From a virus (Duplodnaviria > Heunggongvirae > Uroviricota > Caudoviricetes): 64,000 bases of DNA. Positions 9,119-57,177 of the stretch are shown in pieces. How positions within the stretch are numbered: the stretch's first letter is position 1; the number at the start of each line of letters is the position of its first letter. The position numbers and the translations under genes were made by a program. The notes under the pieces were generated by a model. That model was not told the DNA's origin, did not search any database, and saw nothing but the letters and a program-made list of their open reading frames with translations. The stretch lies in IMG/VR virus record IMGVR_UViG_3300010409_000003; one strand, written 5' to 3'.

Positions 9119-9511
9119 ATGGATAACAAGAAAGCTAAAGCTTTGATAGAAAGATTAACACCTACTAACGAGTGGGGATGCCAAGGTTTACCTTGGGGGG
9201 ATGATGAAAATTGGTTAGGTAATCATATTAATTTTAATAAAGATAAACGTATTATGCGTAAAGTTAAAAAGTTACTATCAGATAGCTATTATAAGGACGT
9301 AATAAGCTACATTAAAGATTGCGAAGGTGGTTTTAACTTTGATATTACTTTTAAATACTCAGGTGATGAGTACTCTGAGGATTGCTATGAATTTAAGAAA
9401 GCGTATGTAGACCAGTACACTAATGGTGGTTATAGTGGGGATGAATTTGCAGGTCAAGTGTGGCTACCTATAACCCCTAAACGATACTTAACTTTCCATT
9501 ATGCTATGTAG
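9119..9511 (+). CDS. hypothetical protein
   Basis: 130-aa ORF. Confidence 0.5.
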   Translation: MDNKKAKALIERLTPTNEWGCQGLPWGDDENWLGNHINFNKDKRIMRKVKKLLSDSYYKDVISYIKDCEGGFNFDITFKYSGDEYSEDCYEFKKAYVDQYTNGGYSGDEFAGQVWLPITPKRYLTFHYAM

Positions 9512-9530
9512 ATTACAAGGAGAAGATTAG

Positions 9531-9722
9531 ATGAGAGTAATGTTAAATTTTAAATGCACAAATAATGAATGTAATCACATTGAAGAAAAGTTCGTAGATA
9601 GTAAAACTAAGGAAGTTTCGTGTACAGTTTGTAATAGTGTAGCTAATAAGATGCTGTGTGCTCCTAAAGTTAAGGGGAATACTACAGGTAGTAGTCCTAG
9701 TTATTCTAAGTTTAAATATTAA
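9531..9722 (+). CDS. hypothetical Zn-ribbon protein
   Basis: 63 aa. CTNNEC...CTVCNS. SD ACAAGGAGAAGATTAGATG. Confidence 0.5.
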   Translation: MRVMLNFKCTNNECNHIEEKFVDSKTKEVSCTVCNSVANKMLCAPKVKGNTTGSSPSYSKFKY

Positions 9723-9737
9723 ATAAGGAAATCTTCA

Positions 9738-9932
9738 ATGAATAAACAAGAATTTAAAGCATTAAATAACAAAATGCTCGCAGCATTAAAGAAACACCCT
9801 AATATTGTTGAAGCAGGTGTAGAGGTCTCACATCATCCTCATCCTTTCTATGGTGATATATTTAGAATTGGAAATGAAGTATATGCATTAAGTAATGATG
9901 GTGATGTTGCAGAATGGAAGAGGGTACAATAA
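9738..9932 (+). CDS. hypothetical protein
   Basis: 64-aa ORF. Confidence 0.45.
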   Translation: MNKQEFKALNNKMLAALKKHPNIVEAGVEVSHHPHPFYGDIFRIGNEVYALSNDGDVAEWKRVQ

Positions 9933-9933
9933 T

Positions 9934-10113
9934 ATGTGGTATACATTTTCAGATAAGAGTTATGTGCACGCCTCTTGTAAGTGGTGGCAGGTAGTTAATT
10001 TTGTATGTGTTTATGACTCAAGGGGTGGAGTACAACCTATAACTACATATAAGGTTTTGTGTGTAAGGTTATGGAACCTAGAAGTTTTACGTGTAGTAGT
10101 TGAGGAATATTAA
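9934..10113 (+). CDS. hypothetical protein (trimmed from ORF 9895..10113)
   Basis: The Met at 9934 is preceded by GAAGAGGG. The longer ORF would overlap the upstream gene. Confidence 0.35.
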   Translation: MWYTFSDKSYVHASCKWWQVVNFVCVYDSRGGVQPITTYKVLCVRLWNLEVLRVVVEEY

Positions 10114-10115
10114 AT

Positions 10116-10550
10116 ATGAAAACAGTTAAAGGTAACTTAGTATCAGCAGTCCTAAATGGTGATGTTGATATGATAATGCATGTATGCAATTGTCAAGGTG
10201 TGATGGGCAGTGGTATCGCTAAGGAAATAAAAGAGAGAATGCCAGAGGCATATAAAGTGTATACTAGTTGGCCTATAAACTTAGGTGGCTATAGTAGTAG
10301 TAAAACCGTTATAAACTTGTATGCACAAGATAACTATGGCTATGGTAAACGCCAACTAAACTATGGAGCACTAAGTTTATCACTACAAGACGCATTCGAT
10401 GATTTAGATGAATCAGGTTTCAGAGGTACAATAGGTATACCTTATAAAATGGGTTCAGATAGGGCAGGCGGTGACTGGGAGATTGTACTAGAAATAGTAG
10501 AAGAATTAGCGGAGTATTATGGTATTGAAGTTGTTATCTACAAACTATAA
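10116..10550 (+). CDS. macro-domain protein (ADP-ribose binding/processing family)
   Basis: 144 aa. VDMIMHVCNCQGVMGSGIAKEIKERMPEAY corresponds to the macro-domain block (DAIVNAAN..GGGV..AI) including the Gly-rich phosphate-binding loop. Confidence 0.55.
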   Translation: MKTVKGNLVSAVLNGDVDMIMHVCNCQGVMGSGIAKEIKERMPEAYKVYTSWPINLGGYSSSKTVINLYAQDNYGYGKRQLNYGALSLSLQDAFDDLDESGFRGTIGIPYKMGSDRAGGDWEIVLEIVEELAEYYGIEVVIYKL

Positions 10551-10559
10551 GGATTAAAT

Positions 10560-10742
10560 ATGAAATTCGTCAAAGTTAAAGGTAAACAAGAGTGGCAATT
10601 TGAATTAAAAGGTGTTATAGTTAGGGTCACTAAGAAGAAGTATGAGGATGTTTACAAATTATATGTAGGCAACAATTGGTTTAGTTCTGACTTAGATAAG
10701 AATGTATTATTTGAGAGGGCTTATGAAATGTTTGATAACTAA
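10560..10742 (+). CDS. hypothetical protein
   Basis: 60-aa ORF. Confidence 0.4.
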   Translation: MKFVKVKGKQEWQFELKGVIVRVTKKKYEDVYKLYVGNNWFSSDLDKNVLFERAYEMFDN

Positions 10743-10753
10743 AGGAAATTACT

Positions 10754-11005
10754 ATGTATAACTACAGCGGTATTGAAGTTGCTAATATAGAATACCAAGA
10801 CTATACTTCTTGTAACCGATGTTCAGCTACTAATGAGATAACCTCTGTAGAAACTTTAAATGGTAGCTGTATCTCAAGTTGTGAAACGGTATGTACTGTA
10901 TGTGGTTTTGAAGATTCTTGGAGTTGTGGTTGGTATGCGAGTTCAGGGTACATAGATAGTAGATGTAATACCTATACGGTAGGTAATAACAAAATTAAGA
11001 GGTAA
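10754..11005 (+). CDS. hypothetical Cys-rich protein
   Basis: 83 aa with multiple CxxC pairs. Confidence 0.45.
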   Translation: MYNYSGIEVANIEYQDYTSCNRCSATNEITSVETLNGSCISSCETVCTVCGFEDSWSCGWYASSGYIDSRCNTYTVGNNKIKR

Positions 11006-11008
11006 TAC

Positions 11009-11215
11009 ATGAAAGGTTACTTAATATCAGTGTTTATAGTTTTCATATTATTTAGTATTCTAGGTAAATACTTGGAAGAAGATGGAGATAACAAATATGA
11101 CTATATATGGGGGTTATTCCTAAGTGTTCTGTGGCCTTTTGTAGTATTAGGAGTTATTTTCAGTAGTTTAATAGAGTTTATAGTAAATAAATTAAAGGAG
11201 AAAATTAATGAATAA
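11009..11215 (+). CDS. hypothetical membrane protein
   Basis: 68 aa with two transmembrane segments. Confidence 0.45.
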   Translation: MKGYLISVFIVFILFSILGKYLEEDGDNKYDYIWGLFLSVLWPFVVLGVIFSSLIEFIVNKLKEKINE

Positions 11216-11429
11216 ATATGAACAATTTAAAAAGTGTACCAACACTACATTTGATGGTGATTCATGGGATATTGAATGTAAATTAGGTTTATGGAGTGTA
11301 AATGGTGTCTGTGAACATCAAGTACAAGACGAAGCCTTACATTATTTCTTACAGTATTTATCTGATGGAGAGTACTTTGAGTTTGTTGGTGGTAAGAGTC
11401 CTACTGAGGTGTTGATGGAGAAGTTATGA
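11208..11429 (+). CDS. hypothetical protein
   Basis: 73 aa. SD AAAGGAGAAAATTAATG. Confidence 0.5.
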   Translation: MNKYEQFKKCTNTTFDGDSWDIECKLGLWSVNGVCEHQVQDEALHYFLQYLSDGEYFEFVGGKSPTEVLMEKL

Positions 11430-11599
11430 TGCTTACTGTAATAAAATTTATACTAATCTTACTAGGTTTGTTATTTGTATACCAATCAGGTGTTTGTCTG
11501 TTTGACTCTACAAGAATAAATGAACATTCAAGCGCTTGGTTTGCTATGGGTCTTGGAGCTGTTAGTATAATGTTAGGTATTTTTACACCTAATTATTGA
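11426..11599 (+). CDS. hypothetical small membrane protein (57 aa)
   Basis: Manual find: MMLTVIKFILILLGLLFVYQ... It has a start/stop overlap with the upstream gene. Confidence 0.35.
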   Translation: MMLTVIKFILILLGLLFVYQSGVCLFDSTRINEHSSAWFAMGLGAVSIMLGIFTPNY

Positions 11600-11793
11600 A
11601 TAAAGGAGGGTACACAATGAGTAAACAACAAAGTGATTTTTTAGCATCTGCTGCTGAGGAACTTAAAGTTATGATTGATTTAGCTAATGAACAATTAAAG
11701 AAAGAAGTTAGTTGTAATTCATTAGATCCACCAGATTATTATGATTATCAAACTTGTTATGAGTTGATGTGCCTATCTAGAGACCTATCCTGA
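11596..11793 (+). CDS. hypothetical protein
   Basis: 65 aa. SD AAAGGAGGGTACACAATG. Confidence 0.5.
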   Translation: MNKGGYTMSKQQSDFLASAAEELKVMIDLANEQLKKEVSCNSLDPPDYYDYQTCYELMCLSRDLS

Positions 11794-11925
11794 CACCTAA
11801 CAATACCTTTCTAAGCCTCTCAGAGCCATTCTAAGAGGTTTTCTCTCTCTTACCTAAGCTACCCTACCACTTAACTATTTAAACCTCTTAAATCGATTGT
11901 TTATAATTAATATTTACCTTAGTTC

Positions 11926-12045
11926 TAAATAGAAAAATCCTCGTAGCAAACTCTAAATTCACCTAAGAACTAAATAGAAAAATCTTCATATAGAAATACA
12001 AATTCTTTGTAAGCCTAAAGGACTAAATAGGAAAATCTTCGTAGA
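11926..12045. repeat. three direct about 22-bp iteron-like repeats CTAAATAG(A/G)AAAATC(C/T)TC(G/A)TAGA
   Basis: Copies at about 11926, 11968 and 12021 inside a 500-bp ORF-free gap. Confidence 0.6.
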
Positions 12046-12318
12046 GAATCTGAAAATCCTTTAGGTCGGTATAATTTTATATAGAATAATGACTTTTATT
12101 TAAAGCAGTAAGTAGTTAATGCACTATATAAGAAGCAATAAAATAATATTAAAAATAATTAAAATAAAACTAGACAAGGTTAATTAATGGGTATAATATA
12201 GCTACAACTTAAACAGAGAACCACAAACAAAAGGCGTTAACAATGATCAATCAAACAGAACAATCAAGCGTGTTAAGTTGGTGTATAATTATTGTGGCAG
12301 TATTACTATCGTGTTTAG

Positions 12319-12639
12319 TTGAAAATATCTAAAGGGGTGTTTAATATGATTACTAAGTTAAGCTTAGACTATTACAGACAAAGAAAAGTAAAAAATAATT
12401 TTAATGTGAAAGAAGACCAAATAAGCATACATAAGGTTATAAATTCCCAATGTGGCTACGATCCACACAATATGAAGAAGTTTGGGACTAGACGACATAA
12501 TAGCTTGTCACTTTTAAGGTCTTATTATAATCGATATACTAAAGGAGGTATAACACTAGACGAATTTATAAGATTGTTAACTACTAGGAAAGACCTTAAT
12601 AAATATTCAAAAAGATTCAAAAAAAAAAAATTAAAATAA
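12319..12639 (+). CDS. hypothetical basic protein
   Basis: 106 aa, Lys/Arg-rich, ends KRFKKKKLK. Confidence 0.45.
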   Translation: MKISKGVFNMITKLSLDYYRQRKVKNNFNVKEDQISIHKVINSQCGYDPHNMKKFGTRRHNSLSLLRSYYNRYTKGGITLDEFIRLLTTRKDLNKYSKRFKKKKLK

Positions 12640-12738
12640 ACTATTGACACCAACAATAAACAATGTAAAATAGCATTCAGAAGTTAAGCAATACATCTTT
12701 GACTAGGCAATTAAGCCAACCATTAATTTATAATATAA

Positions 12739-13413
12739 GTGAGAAATACAATGACTACATCTATCTTTTTAAATAACAACAATGAAGCAGCAACAATTAA
12801 TATTGAAACAGGGCATCCAGAAGGGCATGATCATTTTGTAGTAAGTAAAACGTGGGAACAACTAACAGATAGTAATAAACAAGATATTGCTAGCCAATGG
12901 ATTAAAGACAATGTTTATTGTAATGTAAATCAAGTAATGGAGTTGTTATCTTGTTGTGATACACAAGAAGACTACGAAACGTACTTATCTATTGCAGAAT
13001 ACCAAGATTTTGAGTATGCAAGTACTGACCATATTAATGATTTAAGTATTGAAGAGTTGTTAGAATTAATTGAAGAATATAACCTTGATTTAGTAACATT
13101 AGAAGAGAATGAAGGTAATTCACTTAGTTGTATTACTCATCAGGCTATGACTAATTATATTATCAACAATATTAACCTAGAACAATATGGACAAGACAAC
13201 AACTTAGAGCCAGAGTATCAACAAGCTTATGAATTTTGGAACGTATCCGACCACTTTGTTAGCATGTTACAAGATACGGAGCAATGCAGTAATGATATAC
13301 TAGGTTTATCAGTTTGGGCTAGATACTGTACAGGTCAATCAATTTGTTTAGACACAGCAATACAAAAGGCAGCTTTTAAAGTGTTGAGTGATACTAGTAT
13401 TAATAACTATTAG
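12739..13413 (+). CDS. hypothetical acidic protein
   Basis: 224 aa, strongly acidic. SD AGTGAGAAATACAATG. Confidence 0.5.
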   Translation: MRNTMTTSIFLNNNNEAATINIETGHPEGHDHFVVSKTWEQLTDSNKQDIASQWIKDNVYCNVNQVMELLSCCDTQEDYETYLSIAEYQDFEYASTDHINDLSIEELLELIEEYNLDLVTLEENEGNSLSCITHQAMTNYIINNINLEQYGQDNNLEPEYQQAYEFWNVSDHFVSMLQDTEQCSNDILGLSVWARYCTGQSICLDTAIQKAAFKVLSDTSINNY

Positions 13414-13478
13414 TAAACAATATTTTTATAGCTTATTAAATGTAGTAAGCTATTAGAGATAAATTTTATTAAGTGTAA
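13414..13478 (+). terminator. repeated terminator-plus-promoter module (copy 1; second copy at 14824..14884)
   Basis: tatttttatagcttattaaatgtagtaagctattagagataaattttattaa. Hairpin ATAGCTTATTA/TAGTAAGCTAT followed by a T-rich tract. It is about 90 percent identical to 14824-14884. Confidence 0.5.
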
Positions 13479-13484
13479 ATAAAG

Positions 13485-13694
13485 GTGATGCACATGTTAA
13501 CAATTAAACAAGTAAAAGAAAATGCTTATGTATTTGCAGTAATTATGGAAAGAAACGTAAGTATTAAACAAGCAGTTTCAAGTATTAATAATATATGTAA
13601 TTTAGACATTACTGAGGGTGATTTAAAGTGTTTGATTAGGTTACGAGTACATTACTTTAATATAGATAAAATATTCTCACAATACGAGGTTTAA
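13485..13694 (+). CDS. hypothetical protein
   Basis: 69-aa ORF. Confidence 0.45.
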   Translation: MMHMLTIKQVKENAYVFAVIMERNVSIKQAVSSINNICNLDITEGDLKCLIRLRVHYFNIDKIFSQYEV

Positions 13695-13697
13695 AAC

Positions 13698-13937
13698 ATG
13701 GCGGCATTTTTTTGGAGTAGTACAAGTACAAAAGAACGTATACAACGTTGTAATCAAAAGCTAGCAGATGCAGAGATAAAAGCTCATTTAGCCTTTGCTA
13801 AGTATTCAACTAATGCAAGACGACAGATAGCAGAAATAGAAATCGCTAACTTAATGCAAGAATATGATATAACACATGCTAGCGGTAGTGGTGTGCAAGT
13901 TGAAAATATTGGTAATGGTGTTAAGTTTAAATATTAA
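13698..13937 (+). CDS. hypothetical protein
   Basis: 79-aa ORF. Confidence 0.45.
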   Translation: MAAFFWSSTSTKERIQRCNQKLADAEIKAHLAFAKYSTNARRQIAEIEIANLMQEYDITHASGSGVQVENIGNGVKFKY

Positions 13938-14043
13938 TAAATTAATTTAAAATAAATGATAATAAAGTATTGACATACTAAACCAGAAGAGTAAAATACT
14001 TACATCAACTAAGCAATGGTGCATTAGTTAACAACAAAGAGAT

Positions 14044-14439
14044 ATGATTATGAGTAGTTCAATTGAAATTTTACAGATAAAGTTAGAAGAACTTAAAAGT
14101 AAATTAGATGACGTAAAAGTTAACCTTCTAGATAAACAAAGTGATTTAGAATCTATTGAATTGTGCCCCGATGATTTTATAACGGAGTATGAAGACTGTT
14201 TGAATGAATGTAACGGTGCGTTTATGGGAATGGATGCTAGTTATATACTAAAGCAGCTTGATAATACAGCGTACAGATGCGGGTTGATGGATTATGTTGA
14301 TACTAAAGACGTTACCGAGTGTGAAGAGTACAAAGAGTTAGAACAAGAAATTGAAGAACTTGAAAGTGATATAGAAGATTTAGAAAACGAAATATATGAA
14401 ATTCAAGAAGAATTAGAAGAATTGGAAAATGAAGAATAA
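14044..14439 (+). CDS. hypothetical highly acidic coiled-coil protein
   Basis: 131 aa. The C-terminus ELEQEIEELESDIEDLENEIYEIQEELEELENEE is extremely acidic. Confidence 0.5.
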   Translation: MIMSSSIEILQIKLEELKSKLDDVKVNLLDKQSDLESIELCPDDFITEYEDCLNECNGAFMGMDASYILKQLDNTAYRCGLMDYVDTKDVTECEEYKELEQEIEELESDIEDLENEIYEIQEELEELENEE

Positions 14440-14473
14440 CATTTAATTTAAACAACCATAGGAAACAACACAA

Positions 14474-14620
14474 TGTTAAATAATGCTAAAGTACAAAAGA
14501 TTAAAAACAAGAAGCTTAGAAAAGGTACACAATTCGATAGTGACCAAACATTTAAAATTGAACGTAAACTAGCTAGACAGAGTAAACAGTTTAATCAATG
14601 CCAGTGTATAGGGGGTTAGT
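14474..14620 (+). CDS. hypothetical small basic protein (48 aa)
   Basis: Manual find: MLNNAKVQKIKNKKLRKGTQ... Confidence 0.3.
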
Positions 14621-14824
14621 ATGAATGTATTATATGTAAATCCTATCGGGGGAGTAGATATTAAAGAGAACACTAGTATACTACCACGTGTAGGTGATAG
14701 TGTAGACTTGTACTACAACCCCTATCCTAAAGTGTCCGCAGTTTTATTACACCCTACTAGTGATACTCTAGGGAAGTTAGGTCTAGTGAATATAAGTATT
14801 GATGCAATAGTTACTATTAAATAA
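14621..14824 (+). CDS. hypothetical protein
   Basis: 67-aa ORF. Confidence 0.4.
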   Translation: MNVLYVNPIGGVDIKENTSILPRVGDSVDLYYNPYPKVSAVLLHPTSDTLGKLGLVNISIDAIVTIK

Positions 14825-14884
14825 TAAACACTATTTTTATAGCTTATTAGTTTAGTAAGCTATTAGAGATAAATTTTATTAACA
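14824..14884 (+). terminator. repeated terminator-plus-promoter module (copy 2)
   Basis: ctatttttatagcttattagtttagtaagctattagagataaattttattaa, near-identical to 13414-13478. Confidence 0.5.
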
Positions 14885-14902
14885 ATGAAAAGGAATAGAA
14901 CA

Positions 14903-15223
14903 ATGAATAAAACAATATTAGGATTTATAAAGCGTTCTGATGAGTATAAACTACTCTCTGAGGTGTTAGGACGTAAAGAGGCGTTAAAACAGCTTAAAAT
15001 AGTTGTACGTGCTAATAAAGGCCAATTAGAGGGGTATGACTCAGCTGAAACTGGTAGAGGCTTAAAAGTAAGGTTTGGTTATAATGGAAAACATCTCTGT
15101 TTAATGTCTTTTGTTGGTTGGAGACGCACACCGCAAGGGTTTAAATACTGGGATAATCTGAATGATAAGTTAGTATTAAAGATTAAAAATTATTGCCCAT
15201 CAAAAGATTACACATTTTATTAA
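14903..15223 (+). CDS. hypothetical protein (start trimmed to the Met with AAGGAA SD)
   Basis: ORF track 14885..15223. The Met at 14903 has the better RBS. Confidence 0.45.
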   Translation: MNKTILGFIKRSDEYKLLSEVLGRKEALKQLKIVVRANKGQLEGYDSAETGRGLKVRFGYNGKHLCLMSFVGWRRTPQGFKYWDNLNDKLVLKIKNYCPSKDYTFY

Positions 15224-15240
15224 AATAAATTAATAAAATG

Positions 15241-15300
15241 TGTTGACGTTTATATATAAATCCTTATAATAGGTTTCAAGAGTTAGGAAATGAGTTCCTA
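15241..15300 (+). promoter_or_regulatory. early promoter / 5'-leader module (one of three related copies)
   Basis: TGTTGACGtttatatataaatccTTATAATaggtttcaagagttaggaaatgagttcctaac. TTGACG-17-TATAAT is followed by the hairpin GTTAGGAA-atgag-TTCCTAAC. Confidence 0.5.
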
Positions 15301-15328
15301 ACAGATTATAAATTTTAGAGGTGTTACC

Positions 15329-15835
15329 ATGTCATTATTAAAAACTGACCATTTAGTAAATTTAGGCTCTTGGAAAAACTTTGCAGCAGGTACAGTTGAA
15401 GGGGTGTACCCTAATCCCGTAGAAGCAAATACAATTGCGGATTTAGTCTTATTTGAAAATAGTAGTCATGGTTACAATAGAGTATCGATTACGTTATGTA
15501 ATAGCTTTAATAGCGGTTACATCGGTGATAACATGGAATATAAGAAAGCTACTTTAAATAAGGCTATTAACGAAGACGATTTCAAGTCTAGTACTTTTAG
15601 CGACGATCAAACTATAAAGGATAGTGAATGTGATACAGGTTCTTTTTGTGAATATAACTTTGCTTTAACTCGAAAATATAGCTCAGATAATATTTATCAA
15701 ACTAAAGCTAATACATTAAGCGAACTACTATTACAAATGGCTAAAGATGGCTTGAAAGGTACAGTTACATTTCATTTTACACCGTTCTTTAGAGGTTCTA
15801 TATATGAACCTCTTACGTTAAGAATAGTATTATAA
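15329..15835 (+). CDS. hypothetical protein
   Basis: 168-aa ORF. SD AGAGGTGTTACCATG. Confidence 0.5.
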   Translation: MSLLKTDHLVNLGSWKNFAAGTVEGVYPNPVEANTIADLVLFENSSHGYNRVSITLCNSFNSGYIGDNMEYKKATLNKAINEDDFKSSTFSDDQTIKDSECDTGSFCEYNFALTRKYSSDNIYQTKANTLSELLLQMAKDGLKGTVTFHFTPFFRGSIYEPLTLRIVL

Positions 15836-15849
15836 GGTTAATAAACATA

Positions 15850-15872
15850 AGCCCTATTCAGGGCTTTTACTA
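15850..15872 (+). terminator. rho-independent terminator
   Basis: AAGCCCTattcAGGGCTTTTA. Confidence 0.6.
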
Positions 15873-15889
15873 AACAGGAGAATACAATA

Positions 15890-16279
15890 ATGACTACATA
15901 TATAAATAAATCACCTTACACGTTAGGTCAATTTGGTGAACAGTTAGAAACTATGACATCTCAAGACGTATTTAATATAGCGGCTGAACATTTAGTATTA
16001 CAAGGTGTTAAGAGTGTTGATGTAATGAATTTATGTGCTTATAATGGCGTACACGAAGGTGTAAAAGTGTGTTGTGCTGCTGCCCCTTTTATTAAGGATT
16101 ATGAAGAAGGTATGGAGAATTTACCTTTCAAGGATTTATACAATGTCAAAGATAATGTAGACTTAGTTCAAGAATTACAAATAATACATGACGGTAGTGA
16201 ACCTTTAGAATGGAAAGAAGAGTTAAGAGACTTAGCAGCTAACGAAGGTTTAGAATTACCTGAAATATTGGGAGATTAA
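15890..16279 (+). CDS. hypothetical protein
   Basis: 129 aa. SD AACAGGAGAATACAATAATG. Confidence 0.5.
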   Translation: MTTYINKSPYTLGQFGEQLETMTSQDVFNIAAEHLVLQGVKSVDVMNLCAYNGVHEGVKVCCAAAPFIKDYEEGMENLPFKDLYNVKDNVDLVQELQIIHDGSEPLEWKEELRDLAANEGLELPEILGD

Positions 16280-16300
16280 TTTAGAATAAATGCAAATTAG

Positions 16301-16370
16301 TTGTTGACTACTTAAATTAATCAATGTTAAGATAGCTTCAAGAGTTAGGAAACAAGTTGATAACAACACT
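16301..16370 (+). promoter_or_regulatory. early promoter / 5'-leader module (copy 2)
   Basis: gttgactacttaaattaatcaatgttaagatagcttcaagagttaggaaacaagttg, near-identical to 17021-17090. Confidence 0.5.
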
Positions 16371-16388
16371 AAATAGAGAGTAAATAAA

Positions 16389-17000
16389 ATGCAAATATTA
16401 AATAGATACACAAATGAAGTTATTATAGAAAGTTTAGAAGTTAAGACTATTAAAGAATTAGTAGAATTAGCTGTTAAAGAAGACGCAAACTTAAGAGACG
16501 CAAACTTAAGAGATGCAGACTTAAGAGATGCAGACTTAAGAGGTGCAAACTTAAGAGGTGCAAACTTAGTAAGAGCAAACTTAGTAAGAGCAAACTTAGT
16601 AAGAGCAAACTTAGAAGATGCAAACTTAGTAAGAGCAAACTTAGAAGATGCAAACTTACCTAATTTTTTAATAACCCCTGAAACAGGATCTTTTCAAGCG
16701 TACAAGAAATTAAGACATAATATAATAGTTAAGATTTTAATACCAGATGATGCTAAGAGAACTAATAGCTTAATAGGTCGTAAATGTAGGACTAATGAGT
16801 TCACTATTACAGAAGTTATGCAGAACCCTGCTAACATTAGTTTCAGTGAACACAAACCTTTACAATCTACACATTATGCATCAGAAGGATACTATCTAGG
16901 GGGTACTTTCAAAGAGCCTGCGTACGATGATGATATCCGTTTAGAGTGTACTAAAGGTTTGCATTTCTTTATGACATTAAAAGAAGCCCAAGATTGGTAA
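16389..17000 (+). CDS. pentapeptide-repeat protein (N-terminal A(N/D)LR(D/G/V) repeat array, about 18 repeats, plus a C-terminal globular domain)
   Basis: Reads [58 protein letters not shown], the hallmark of the Qnr/MfpA-type right-handed quadrilateral beta-helix. Confidence 0.7.
16483..16665 (+). repeat. tandem 15-bp DNA repeats (gcaaacttaagagat-like) encoding the pentapeptide array
   Basis: About 12 head-to-tail copies with minor variation. Confidence 0.7.
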
Positions 17001-17020
17001 TTAATTTAAAATAAAGTGTT

Positions 17021-17090
17021 GACTATCTAAATTAATCAATGTTAAGATAGCTTCAAGAGTTAGCAAACAAGTTGCTAGTAATAACTTAGG
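17021..17090 (+). promoter_or_regulatory. early promoter / 5'-leader module (copy 3)
   Basis: gttgactatctaaattaatcaatgttaagatagcttcaagagttagcaaacaagttgcta. The hairpin TAGCAA-acaag-TTGCTA shows a compensatory change relative to the 15271 copy. Confidence 0.5.
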
Positions 17091-17101
17091 GTTATAGGTT
17101 T

Positions 17102-17371
17102 ATGAATAAAATTAAGATAACATTACAAGAATCAGGTTGGTGTACTGACCTACGTATTAACGGACGGGATTTAGACGCAGGTTACAAAGTTAATTATAGT
17201 CTAAATGGTAAGTTAAAAAGTAATAAGGTGTATATGCATAATAGCGGTAGGAGCATAACCTTATACATAAAAATAAAAGGTAAAAGAGTAATGCTACAAA
17301 ATGAGGAAGTTATATATAATGTATCTCCCTACTCACTAGGTATCTATAAGAAGTGGTACATTGAGGTGTAG
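17102..17371 (+). CDS. hypothetical protein
   Basis: 89-aa ORF. Confidence 0.5.
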   Translation: MNKIKITLQESGWCTDLRINGRDLDAGYKVNYSLNGKLKSNKVYMHNSGRSITLYIKIKGKRVMLQNEEVIYNVSPYSLGIYKKWYIEV

Positions 17372-17387
17372 TAAGTAGTTCACAGAT

Positions 17388-17415
17388 AGCCCACTTTAAC
17401 AGTGGGCTTTTTATT
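17388..17415 (+). terminator. rho-independent terminator closing the rightward early block
   Basis: AGCCCACTttaacAGTGGGCTTTTTATT. Confidence 0.7.
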
Positions 17416-17419
17416 GCCT

Positions 17420-19233
17420 AGAATTTACCAATCAAGGTAGGCAGACAGGTACACTTAAACAGGACAAAACTAGGTAGTACACCTCAGTATAAAGACTACA
17501 GATTGCTACTGTTGTATACAAACCCTTAGTTGTTGGTATAAGGCACACTATAAGCTTGCAATACTAAGCTGTAAGAGATAGTAGGAGGCTAGTATAAGTG
17601 TTGTTATAAGGGGGTTAACTAAGTATCAACTAAGTAGCTACTGTTTCTATATGACTGTGTTGTATACTAGAGGATGCTATTTAGTGTTGTGTTCTAGTGT
17701 TATAACCTAGTATGTCAAGTATAAGTGGTAGTATAAGGAGAGACTAAACTAGTTAGTGTAATTAGTTTATACAACTTTAGTTACTACTGTTTACAGTGAC
17801 CTATTGTATATAGAATATAAGTAGTTAATATAAGATAGATAAATATAAGGTACGGTATAAGTTAGTATACTTAGTTGGTCTAACTAGGTTGCTACTGTTG
17901 TATAAGGCTTAAGATAGTTTATATAAGTTATTCTAATGATAGTTGTAAGTATTTAAGTTTTACTAATATAAGCTATTAACCTAGTAGGTGTTTAACAATT
18001 CCCAATTTCCCTTATAAACTACTATAAATTCCCCCATATAAAGCACATCCTACTCTTTACCCTCCATTTTCCCCTATTAAATACTCCCTATTTAGCCTTT
18101 TAATACTATACCCTACCCATTACCTTAGTTTTATCTAAAGTCCTCTTAGAATGGCTCCTAGTGGCTCCTACTCTATGTTGTAGCTATAAACTATACCAAT
18201 ATAAACTTGTCCTATAAGGGGGTAATATAAGTTGAGGCTAATTAGGAGGTGAACTAGGCATAAATATAAGTTTTGTACTATAAGCTTGTATAATATAAAT
18301 AAGCCAATATAAGGCTATTAAATAGGAAAGTGTACCTAGGGTATAGCTAACTAGTTTAAGTGGCTTAGAATGGCTAATATAAGCTTAGAATAGTATAAGT
18401 AGGTTAAGTATAAGAGGTATAATATAAGAGGGCTATACTGATATTTTAGAATTACTAGAGGAATATAAAGAGGGGGAGTGGAGTGGTTAAACACCTCAAT
18501 TATAAAATACCTTAAATATAACTAAAGGTAGTCTACTCTTCCCTCAATACAACAGTAGCAACCTTAGTAGTCAACTAGTTAGTATAATATAAATTACAAT
18601 TATAAATTAGTCACTTAAGTCTACCTACCATAGTAGTCCTCTATAAACTTGCATCTATAAATCTAACACTATTTACATACAACAGTAGCAACTAAGGTAG
18701 TAAACTATAGTAGTCAATCTGTCATGCTAACAGAGTATAATCAGAGACAGTCTATAAGAAGTTTATCTTAATTCTAGTATACAATTTGTTACCTATAACG
18801 TATCATTTTGTCTACCTAATTAGTGTTGTAATAGTTCGGAACGAACAGTGGCAAATTGAGGCTATAAATATAAAATATTACCTCTATAAACTTGTTCATC
18901 ATGTCTTGATATTTTAGTATATAAGCTGTATTAATAATCTTATGAAAACAGGCTGTTCATATACAAATTTAGTTGAAATGGATATTAACTGATATTTGTA
19001 CTATATGTCTATTAAGAATAGTGGGTAAGAATACACTGATATTTTAGTATATAAGAATGGCTCTATAAGGCTTTATATCTAGGTAGGCATACATTTGTAT
19101 GTATAATTGATTTAAGTTGATTAGAGAGCTTCTGAGGAGGTTTGAGGGTATATTTGAAGGTAATTTATCTATAAACAGGAAAGTATATAAATAGATATAG
19201 AAATTGGGCATTATTGAATAGAGGGTATAAGAA
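17420..19233. other. 1.8-kb ORF-free repeat-dense region (candidate replication origin, genome terminus or ncRNA locus)
   Basis: No ORF of 60 aa or more on either strand. The iteron GTTGCTACTGTTGTAT occurs at about 17503 and 17890 (plus) and 18550 and 18682 (minus). There are about 20 (A)ATATAAG(G) elements between 17547 and 18430. The stretch 18000-18130 has almost no G and 18180-18480 has almost no C. CTGATATTTTAGTATATAAG occurs three times (18441, 18907, 19036). Confidence 0.6.
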
Positions 19234-54843: not shown

Positions 54844-57177
54844 ATGTCAGGATTTTCAATAGCAGACTTCTTTGCTCAGTTAAGTATAAAAGCTGATACT
54901 AAAGAAGTTAAGAAAATAGAAGACTCATTGAATAAGATTAATAAATCTTTGAAGATGATAGGAGTTACTAGTGTAGCTCAAGCTAAGAAAGTAGATACTG
55001 TTTTTAAAGGGGAAGCCTTACGTAGACAACACTTACAAGTGAAAGGTCTACATGATGAACTAGAAAAAATGGGTAGCTCTTTAGTTGGCTTTAAGAACAG
55101 ACTAGTTGGTATCGATAAGCAATCTGAATTCGTTAAGATTAAGAATGACATTAAAGAAGCTAAACTAGAAGCTCAACGGTTTAAGAATGAACTTAAACTA
55201 AAGCATAACACTAATAGCATACTAGGTAAAGATAACATCTTTAAGAAGCCGGATGCTTTTAATGGTGCTAATGATAAAGGTAATAATGCTACTAGGATGT
55301 TCCAAGGAGGCGATGACTTCTGGGAAAGATCTGATAAAGGTAGACGTTTACTACATGACCTCAGTGAAGACCAAGTTGACCAATTAAGAGCATTAGCTGC
55401 CGAACAAGTTAAGATGAAGAAGTCGGTAACTGACGCTAATTTAGCTTTAAATACACAAGCTAAGAAGTTTAGGAAAATCAACGATACTATCCCTAAAGTT
55501 AATGCACAAATAACCTCATTAACTAGAGCACAGAATAGGCTAAAAGAATCAGCTAGGCAACTTGCATTATCAATGGTAGGTGCTTTCGCGGTATTCGAAG
55601 GTGTTAAGAGTATCAACAGAGTTGGTCAAGACTTTGAAGGTATGGAAGCTGCAATGTTGGCTTCTTCAGGTAGTTCTAAGTTAGCAGCTAAAGACTTAGC
55701 TTTTGTAGATGAACAAGCTGTACGATTAGGTTTAGACCTACGAGAGACCACAGATGCTTACTCTAAGTTGCAATTTGCAGCTAAAGGTAAAATGAGTAAA
55801 GGACAAACTAAAGAATTATTTACAGGTTTTAGTGAGTTTGCTACAGCCTTGAAAGTTAGTCCAGAACAACAGAAATCAGGGTTAAGAGCCTTGCAACAAA
55901 TGCTCAATAAAACTACGGTTATGAGCGAAGAATTAAAACAACAACTCGCTTAATGTTGGGCGCTTAGGGTAGGAAACTCCCTTAGAAGAATCTATTTAAT
56001 TGCTGGGACAACTTGTTAAGCTTAGTATACAATACTACATAGTGATATAGTAGCGACCTGTAAAAATTACTAGGATAGAGTTAATCAGCCTCCAATCTCC
56101 TTTAGAGGAGCAGGATCAACGACTAGAGGGCAACCTCGTACACTACAAGCTATTGGTAGTGGAAACAATAGACACCTAAACAAGTGATGTTGTAGGTGAT
56201 GATATAGTCTATTCTTACATGAGAATGTAAGCAGTTCATAAGGTTACTACCTTTGAGAACGAGTAACTTAGTAGCGTAAGTTATTGAATGCTAAGGAACA
56301 AGTACCCGGAAGTATACAAATATTCGCCAACGCTTTAAATGTTTCTGAAAAAGAATTATTTAAAATGATGGAACAAGGTACAATAGTATCCTCAGAGGTA
56401 CTACCTAAAGTAGCTAAAGAATTTGCCAAAGCCGCTAGAAGCGGTGGTGCATTAGCGGAAGCTTTGAATACAGTTAGGGTACAACAAGGTAGATTTCTAA
56501 CAGATACACAGAAAGCACAGAATACTATATTCACTAATGGTTTTGGAGAGGGGCTAGCTTCTGCTTACAAAACATTAAGTCAAGTATTGAAAGACTTAGA
56601 ACCAGTGTTGAAAGGTATAGGTCAAGGTTTTGGATTCTTATTCAGAACTTTAGCCGCAGGTATTAATATGATAACTGCACCTCTAAGATCTATAAAATTA
56701 CTTACAGACTTACTAATAGACTTAGATGAAGTGTCTAATACTTTCGCAGAGAATACCGTACCTAGAATGGTAGCCGCAGGTGCTTTATTGTTAACTGCTT
56801 GGGGGAGAGTACTAGCTAAGTTTTTAGCAGTAAAAGCAGTACTAGAGGAATTAGTAGCTCTTAGTTCTAAGAATATAGTAGGCCAAGTAGAACGTGATAT
56901 AGGAAGGGACATAGGTTTTGACTTAGGTGTAGGTGAAAGCACTAGGAGTGGTGATAACCCTTCTCTCAATAAAGAAGCCACTAGCTTTGATAATTACCTT
57001 CAATTTTATAACAGCGAAGATAGGTTTAGTGCTATGGATTGGTTAAAGGATAATGTACTAAATAGTATGGGTTCGGAGATAGTAATAAATCAACAACCTA
57101 CTATAGATGAATACGGCAGTGTCCATATTGAGAATACTGTACAACGTTCTATAGTCAATGGTCAAGCTCAGAGGTAA
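54844..57177 (+). CDS. tape measure protein, two exons (54844..55953 and about 56275..57177) separated by a putative group I intron
   Basis: Both ORFs are in the same reading frame. The first is Lys/Gln/Ala-rich helical. The second begins (L)NAKEQ...VSEKELFKMMEQGTIVSSEVLPKVAKEFAKAA, typical of a tape-measure interior. Confidence 0.6.
55954..56274 (+). ncRNA. putative ORF-less group I self-splicing intron in the tape-measure gene
   Basis: It starts UAAUGUUGGGCG immediately after an exon-terminal U (compare the T4 td intron, which starts UAAUUGAGGCC). The IGS GGCG can pair with exon CGCU. R-like UCAACGACUAGAGGG is at 56119. S-like GAUAUAGUCUAU is at 56204. It ends in G before an in-frame continuation. 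The 3' boundary is 56274 or 56280. Confidence 0.5.

Follow-up and report, generated by a model that had tools for sequence, protein, structure and literature searches.

A stand-alone macro-domain protein of the Adpp/AdfM lineage in a myovirus-type phage and its possible role against ADP-ribose-based host defence

Functions have only recently been assigned to the macro-domain proteins of phages, namely AdfM against DarTG2 and Adpp against aRES. The AdfM of phage PhiKZ, gp104, strips the ADP-ribose added by DarT2 off single-stranded DNA in vitro and neutralises DarT2, and the substitution N23A lowers its activity (PMC13309987). The name AdfM has also been given to Tk.4 of phage T4, the only T4 gene whose loss renders the phage sensitive to DarTG2 (bioRxiv 10.1101/2025.11.20.689424). 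aRES, a RES-domain defence, converts nicotinamide adenine dinucleotide (NAD+) to nicotinamide and ADP-ribose (ADPR)-1''-phosphate (ADPR-1''-P), a product that cannot be used by NARP1, which consists of Adps and Namat (bioRxiv 10.64898/2026.01.28.702374). The macro protein Adpp is encoded in 15% of NARP1 operons, and the purified Adpp of Vibrio phage Gary converts ADPR-1''-P to ADPR (bioRxiv 10.64898/2026.01.28.702374). An Adps-Adpp-Namat operon beats aRES, an effect abolished by either H24A or N27A in Gary Adpp (Table S4, 10.64898/2026.01.28.702374). According to the same preprint, ADPR by itself does not restore NAD+, and Poa1p is the closest characterised homolog of phage Adpp. Here, we describe a divergent relative of these proteins, the 144-residue product of a gene at positions 10116-10550 (+ strand) in a 64,000-nucleotide stretch of DNA, the window, from a tailed phage of the class Caudoviricetes (IMG/VR record IMGVR_UViG_3300010409_000003).

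The open reading frame (ORF) at 10116-10550 encodes a macro protein that is real, under selection and made of a single domain, and that falls in the TARG1/ALC1-like branch. It is matched over its full length by phrog_335, annotated as 'phosphatase' (E 2.6e-41), and by the DarG model of PADLOC (E 2.9e-10), in which residues 5-143 align with positions 6-144 of a 329-position profile, that is, with the macro part only. Two other models respond weakly: Pfam Macro (PF01661) gives 17.6 bits over residues 22-50 only, short of its gathering threshold of 22, and the DarG model of NCBIfam gives 36 bits against a cut-off of 250. Most homologs are likewise devoid of a precomputed Pfam match, and PF01661 covers this divergent TARG1-like branch poorly. 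When a profile built from 54 homologs was compared with solved macro domains, it matched BT1257 (2.4e-16), SCO6735 (4.8e-14), the DarG of Mycobacterium tuberculosis (Mtb; 8e-12), Thermus DarG (3e-9), Poa1p (about 1e-8) and TARG1 (4e-8). The AlphaFold2 model of the protein has a mean predicted local distance difference test score (pLDDT) of 95.3, and its best Foldseek matches in the PDB are TARG1 and the macro domain of Thermus DarG, with template modelling (TM) scores of 0.82-0.83. With the exception of a few variants of designed hydrolases (4etk, 4etj), the top 50 PDB matches listed are macro structures with the three-layer alpha/beta/alpha arrangement. The ratio of nonsynonymous to synonymous substitution rates (dN/dS) between the gene and an 80%-identical syntenic sister gene (locus L101, 4026-4460) is 0.11. 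In source databases, the homologs carry the label O-acetyl-ADP-ribose deacetylase. The original prediction, drawn from the letters alone, had proposed a minimal macro domain, and both the fold and the epithet hold: the 144 residues contain this single domain and nothing else.

The active-site and ADP-ribose-binding residues are strongly conserved. H22, N25, S32, G33, A35, N67, Q71, Y83, P109, A117, G118 and G119 are invariant in the 54 homologs, and the ADP-ribose-binding motifs N25, G31-S32-G33 and A117-G118-G119, all invariant or nearly so, align with those of solved macro domains. The His22-Val-Cys-Asn25 motif (10179-10190, + strand), recognised by this invariance and from alignments, places His22 and Asn25 at H24 and N27 of Gary Adpp, and Asn25 at N23 of PhiKZ AdfM. 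The pattern His-x-x-Asn is common to TARG1, SCO6735, BT1257, T4 Tk.4 and Gary Adpp, but not to DarG or PhiKZ gp104. Loop 1, Gly31-Ser-Gly-Ile-Ala35 (10206-10220, + strand), holds the phosphate-binding G-x-G, with S32, G33 and A35 invariant and G31 present in at least 90% of the homologs; this is the stretch matched by the Pfam Macro and DarG models. In the segment Asn67-Leu-Tyr-Ala-Gln71 (10314-10328, + strand), profile alignments to the DarG of Mtb and of Thermus aquaticus (Taq), together with the multiple alignment, set the invariant Gln71 against the catalytic lysines of DarG (Lys80) and TARG1 (Lys84), and Ala70 against DarG Thr79. Ala117 aligns with Asp125 of TARG1 (the TARG1 query sequence agrees with the PDB alignment), and the Lys84/Asp125 catalytic pair of TARG1 is absent. 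As judged from these alignments, the catalytic residues of DarG and TARG1 are thus missing from the 144-residue protein. The SCO6735 subclass also lacks the TARG1 catalytic pair, with Gln in place of Lys, yet removes Glu-linked ADP-ribose (PMC8120803).

Loop 2, Pro109-Tyr-Lys-Met-Gly-Ser-Asp115-Arg116-Ala-Gly-Gly-Asp-Trp121 (10440-10478, + strand, from alignments), contains a variable pair of residues. The pair Asp115-Arg116 (10458-10463) stands where Gary Adpp, SCO6735, BT1257 and the 80%-identical sister have Gly-Leu. These third and fourth positions are the most variable of the loop across the family (D, G, C, V, H, Y or A at the third and R, L or N at the fourth), the remainder being fixed. 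Asp115-Arg116 was considered as a clade-defining catalytic feature and rejected, as the sister gene has Gly-Leu. The isoelectric point was likewise dropped as a proxy for DNA binding, PhiKZ AdfM being equally acidic.

Of the published proteins compared by BLASTP, those closest to the 144-residue protein are the NARP1-operon macro proteins of Vibrio phages RYC (50% identity, 124 bits) and 1.063.O (48%, 122 bits), followed by that of Pseudoalteromonas phage PH357 (42%, 110 bits), by Gary Adpp (32%, 69 bits, full length) and by T4 Tk.4 (29%, 47 bits, full length, E 2e-12). SCO6735 and the DarG macro domains stand at 25% and 24% identity, and PhiKZ gp104 aligns over 38 N-terminal residues only, with an hhalign probability of 96% but not through a T-K motif. 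Tk.4 and Gary Adpp share 35% identity (77 bits), more than either of them shares with the 144-residue protein. PhiKZ gp104 groups with DarG (80-87 bits, as against 34 bits with the 144-residue protein) and scores only 18-21 bits with Tk.4 and Gary Adpp. Sequence comparison thus places Adpp and the T4-type AdfM in a single His-Asn-Gln lineage (phrog_335, Poa1p/TARG1-like), of which the 144-residue protein represents a sister subclade; the name 'AdfM' spans two separate macro lineages, the split between AdfM and Adpp not following sequence. Because Tk.4 and Gary Adpp are so related, one lineage holds both named functions; because they are closer to each other than to the 144-residue protein, the two functions are indistinguishable by sequence at present, and automatic annotation as 'Adpp', 'AdfM' or 'phosphatase' is unsafe. 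Both key functional papers on the His-Asn-Gln lineage are preprints. In a rough neighbour-joining tree, calculated without bootstrap or other support values, the 144-residue protein falls with loci L004 and L030, RYC and 1.063.O, and NARP1-linked and unlinked macro genes are intermixed.

Each of the described systems resembles the new protein in part. Gary Adpp (gp137) is, like it, a single macro domain of about 150 residues, aligned over the full length, with His-x-x-Asn and a Gln at the position of the DarG lysine; its membership of phrog_335 is by inference, Tk.4 and PhiKZ gp104 being the proteins that were scanned. The RYC and 1.063.O macro proteins of NARP1 operons, given in Table S1 of the preprint on Adpp (bioRxiv 10.64898/2026.01.28.702374), are 48-50% identical to the 144-residue protein. 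Gary Adpp differs in its loop 2 (GCGLAGGDW, as against GSDRAGGDW) and in lying outside the subclade, and the gene described here is neither in nor near a NARP1 operon. T4 Tk.4 is a stand-alone gene in a phage without NARP1 and shares the His-x-x-Asn and N-L-Y-x-Gln motifs and phrog_335; its identity is low, its loop 2 reads GAGIGKGNW, it is nearer to Gary Adpp, and its role is known genetically. PhiKZ gp104 and the DarG macro domain (PDB 5M31, 5M3E, 5M3I) have the TARG1/ALC1-like fold (TM 0.76-0.82), the motif N-x(5)-G-x-G-[IVL]-A and the equivalent of Asn25. They carry the T-K catalytic motif (Lys80) and no His, where the 144-residue protein has A-Q and His22, and DarG in addition has a C-terminal DarT-binding domain and an adjacent darT, neither of which accompanies the gene studied here. 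The subtype suggested by the original prediction, DarG-like, accordingly stands only in part, in that the protein belongs to the TARG1/ALC1-like branch which also holds DarG; the Gln in place of the catalytic Lys, the missing DarT-binding domain and the want of a DarT neighbour speak against a DarG-like enzyme proper. Yeast Poa1p, an ADP-ribose-1''-phosphate phosphatase (PDB 6LFQ), has the same fold (TM 0.73-0.77), but it comes from a eukaryote, where it serves the metabolism of tRNA-splicing by-products, and its profile match spans the N-terminal two thirds only (profile positions 2-107). SCO6735 of Streptomyces coelicolor (PDB 5E3B) and BT1257 of Bacteroides (PDB 2FG1), the best profile matches among solved structures, share His-x-x-Asn and the Gln for the TARG1 Lys; unlike the phage protein, they are cellular, with 25-26% identity and a loop 2 of GCGLAGG, and their known connections are with antibiotic production and the response to DNA damage.

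The macro gene is solo in this phage. A contig from Logan (run SRR5035895) bridges the two window ends, and look-ups of edge proteins together with a homolog search recovered all DNA outside it: the genome circularises at 90,687 bp, of which the window makes up 64 kb. The remaining 26.7 kb carry genes for DNA polymerase A, Nmad5, an RNase H-like protein, ThyX, glutaredoxin, both ribonucleotide reductase subunits and the tail and tail-fibre region. The complete genome contains one macro gene only, and no Adps, Namat or Nampt was found in it by tblastn with nine diverse queries (best match 25 residues, E 0.1). Neither NAPRTase nor Pribosyltran families occur among the called genes in the Pfam lists. 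No NARP2- or NARP3-type gene, NADAR, Nudix, Nampt, NadR or PnuC was detected in a Pfam scan of 1-42.5 kb or among the Pfam families on record for the called genes of the tail region and of the DNA beyond the window. There is, moreover, no ADP-ribosyltransferase or sirtuin among the 75 ORFs of the first 42.5 kb or the on-record Pfam families of the tail region and of the DNA beyond the window, the genes for head and packaging (about 42.7-52.2 kb) lying outside the Pfam scan. No DarT2 match was obtained in the window, nor at any of some 140 related loci, in a search with one query and hence of limited sensitivity. On the contig of the 80%-identical sister, the macro gene is solo and syntenic too.

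The solo state is also the common one in Rheinheimera phages, where about 115 records have the macro gene and only 3 records the matching Namat. Two Rheinheimera 'Barba' siblings (L009, 5856-8878, and L012, 5856-6517) illustrate how the association may arise. Their flanks are 95-99% identical; Barba19A alone has a 2.4-kb insertion of Adps and Namat directly 3' of the macro gene, whose own DNA is only 79% identical between the two. NARP1 appears to arrive as a three-gene cassette of macro gene, Adps and Namat that replaces the resident solo macro allele.

It is very nearly certain, in our judgement, that the 144-residue protein is an ADP-ribose-processing macro enzyme. It would bind the ADP-ribose moiety and hydrolyse whatever is attached at ribose C1''. 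The reaction is, almost certainly, the hydrolytic removal of a C1'' substituent from the bound ADP-ribose by way of the His/Asn site, with His22 and Asn25 predicted to catalyse in place of the DarG lysine. An anti-defence role is probable, and the general idea of the original prediction, that a phage macro protein could process ADP-ribose against host defence, is supported. The reading that we favour, at a probability of roughly 0.4, is an AdfM-like role in which ADP-ribose added by a host ADP-ribosyltransferase is removed from phage nucleic acid. In this scheme, the host transferase would modify phage nucleic acid, on the model of DarT2-type attachment of ADP-ribose to thymidine in single-stranded DNA, and the solo macro enzyme would take the ADP-ribose off again; reversal of DarT2 DNA ADP-ribosylation itself, also foreseen by the original prediction, is a live possibility. 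The enzyme would work alone, because the complete genome is without NARP1. The protein probably still acts on ADPR-1''-phosphate as a phosphatase too, be it as a side activity or a second one.

The argument for this reading runs from the solo state. There is no known benefit of Adpp in the absence of NARP1, because ADPR alone does not restore NAD+; solo copies are nonetheless widespread and under strong purifying selection, and therefore a NARP1-independent benefit must exist. We rank the AdfM-like role first because the protection of T4 from DarTG2 by Tk.4 is the only such benefit demonstrated in the lineage. Tk.4 shares both the His-x-x-Asn...Gln signature and the solo state with the 144-residue protein, the PADLOC DarG match spans the whole of the latter, and Asn25 corresponds to the residue whose substitution impairs PhiKZ AdfM. 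Several observations weigh against it. The DarG catalytic Lys is absent, and the evidence on Tk.4, itself without that Lys, is genetic and comes from a preprint. NARP1-embedded macro proteins (48-60% identity) are nearer to the 144-residue protein than Tk.4 is, and the biochemically proven AdfM, PhiKZ gp104, comes from a different, DarG-type lineage. All three experimentally tested proteins fall outside the neighbour-joining clade of the 144-residue protein. Solo and NARP1-linked alleles have identical active-site motifs, with no specific pointer to DNA in the sequence.

Sequence, together with the genomic setting of the relatives, speaks for Adpp-type phosphatase chemistry. The nearest relatives with an informative context are macro proteins of NARP1 operons, which reconstitute NAD+; they form the Adpp class of ADPR-1''-phosphate phosphatases (bioRxiv 10.64898/2026.01.28.702374), a function that was not on the list of the original prediction. 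Besides RYC, 1.063.O and PH357, they include the NARP1-embedded macro protein of locus L003 (58-60% identity); a 58%-identical homolog lies directly 3' of Adps-like and Namat-like genes, and the RYC macro gene sits between Adps and Namat. After 80 IMG/VR loci had been de-replicated at 70% identity, a Namat-like gene was present within 6 kb in 18 of the 45 clusters, often abutting the macro gene. The same held for 16 of 43 loci in a genome collection, many of them on phage-sized contigs of metagenome-assembled genomes; the collection contained no cellular relative above 40% identity. A dedicated Adpp, that is, an ADPR-1''-phosphate phosphatase directed against RES-type (aRES) NAD+ phosphorolysis in a phage without a NARP1 of its own, is accordingly a possible, if rather unlikely, function. 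The full-length similarity to purified Gary Adpp, the correspondence of H22 and N25 to the H24 and N27 needed for Adpp function and the match of the family profile to Poa1p all argue for it. The enzyme might clear ADPR-1''-P, might feed ADPR to an NAD+ route, host or co-infecting, or might be the remnant of a lost NARP1-AP cassette. Against these variants, neither Adps nor Namat is encoded in the complete 90.7-kb genome and its Pfam lists show no NARP2 or NARP3 gene, which leaves a dedicated Adpp without known benefit if ADPR alone restores no NAD+ (bioRxiv 10.64898/2026.01.28.702374). The frequency of solo copies and the strong purifying selection run contrary to the decay expected of a remnant, and Gary Adpp lies outside the subclade of the 144-residue protein. 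With an Adpp-clade macro gene in a complete genome devoid of NARP1, the role published for Adpp must be an incomplete account of what this clade does.

It is likewise possible, if rather unlikely, that the protein hydrolyses some other ADP-ribose conjugate, such as ADP-ribosylated RNA or protein produced by CmdT-like host ADP-ribosyltransferases, the O-acetyl-ADP-ribose of sirtuins, or an immune signal such as His-ADPR. Members of the branch, among them TARG1, SCO6735 and Poa1p, act on varied 1''-linked substrates, and SCO6735 removes Glu-linked ADP-ribose with the same Gln for Lys (PMC8120803). The free variation of the third and fourth loop 2 residues, even at 80% identity, is as expected under specificity tuning, and the deacetylase label of the homologs points the same way. 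Such an activity has, however, not yet been reported for any phage macro protein; the genes and families scanned here, which leave aside about 42.7-52.2 kb, hold no transferase or sirtuin; and the cyclic ADPR signals of Thoeris are cleaved by a different family, RyDEP.

These readings need not exclude one another, and a 1''-hydrolase of broad range would account for the solo state as well as for repeated capture beside NARP1, which consumes ADPR. Improbable is the further proposal that either the solo members of the clade hit an unrecognised conjugate (e.g. ADP-ribosylated RNA or a His-ADPR-type signal), with the loop 2 pair tuning specificity, or Adpp and T4-type AdfM are one bifunctional enzyme. 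On the bifunctional view, the gain of a NARP1 cassette alongside would each time allow the ADPR produced to be recycled, as in the Barba phages. A non-catalytic binder of ADP-ribose, a sponge or a reader, would suit the lack of the TARG1 Lys/Asp pair, and phage sponges for ADPR-derived signals exist, but it is very improbable given that His22, Asn25 and Gln71 are invariant, that the equivalents of His22 and Asn25 are needed for the enzymatic function of Adpp, and that enzyme activity is proven for Gary Adpp, which bears this signature. The 144-residue protein adds a divergent, strongly conserved member to the phage macro proteins, from a myovirus lineage without a sequenced near relative.

The macro coding sequence (10116-10550, + strand, stop codon included) starts with ATG, and a Shine-Dalgarno GAGG read directly from the sequence at 10102-10105 (+ strand) lies 10 nucleotides before it. 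The stop codon of the upstream ORF occupies 10111-10113, the macro ATG following 2 nucleotides further on. The gene is the 13th of about 33 small, tightly packed ORFs on the + strand (6799-17371), a run that opens at a 600-nucleotide divergent intergenic region; a block on the - strand with the primase/helicase lies on the opposite side. This region looks like an early or accessory region, and the placing of the macro gene among early genes, as originally predicted, is plausible from gene layout. It gained no support from a promoter and terminator scan, which was indistinguishable from shuffled sequence near the macro gene (37 sigma-70 sites around it, against 35.3 expected from shuffles). The immediate neighbours have no informative PHROG match.

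The window as a whole represents a low-GC (0.30-0.37) myovirus-type phage with terminase, portal and baseplate genes, an RNA ligase and a Dda-like helicase, and a near-identity DNA search among 50,697 sequenced phages returned no near relative of it. Beyond the + strand run, an ORF-poor region of about 1.6 kb (17371-19044) marks the convergence of + and - strand gene blocks; it holds no tRNA and no Rfam family at gathering score. The Pfam scan of 1-42500, which gives families and not the ORFs that carry them, recovered among the non-structural ORFs a Dam-type D12 N6-adenine methyltransferase (2.7e-44) and a pentapeptide-repeat protein (2.9e-18), together with DUF5758, an NAD+-ligase-like N-terminal domain (Nlig-Ia, 7.7e-19), SPFH/Band_7 and YwqH-like families.

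Two observations concern the structural genes. A group I intron (RF00028) lies at 55942-56231 (+ strand), matching the full-length model at E 5e-18 with 77.7 bits, where the gathering score is 50. It is flanked by an ORF of 369 residues with Pfam TMP_3 (54844-55953) and by one of 297 residues with a TTG start and a weak TMP_3 match (56284-57177), and the tape-measure gene appears to be split by this intron, which is without a homing-endonuclease ORF. The large terminase (42692-45088, + strand, 798 residues) has an N-terminal extension of about 320 residues that matches PHROGs of primase and DnaC-like P-loop proteins (phrog_510, phrog_50). Most terminase relatives match residues 325-790 only, while the long form recurs, at 97-98% coverage, in Pseudoalteromonas phage HM1 and in Acinetobacter phage TaPaz.

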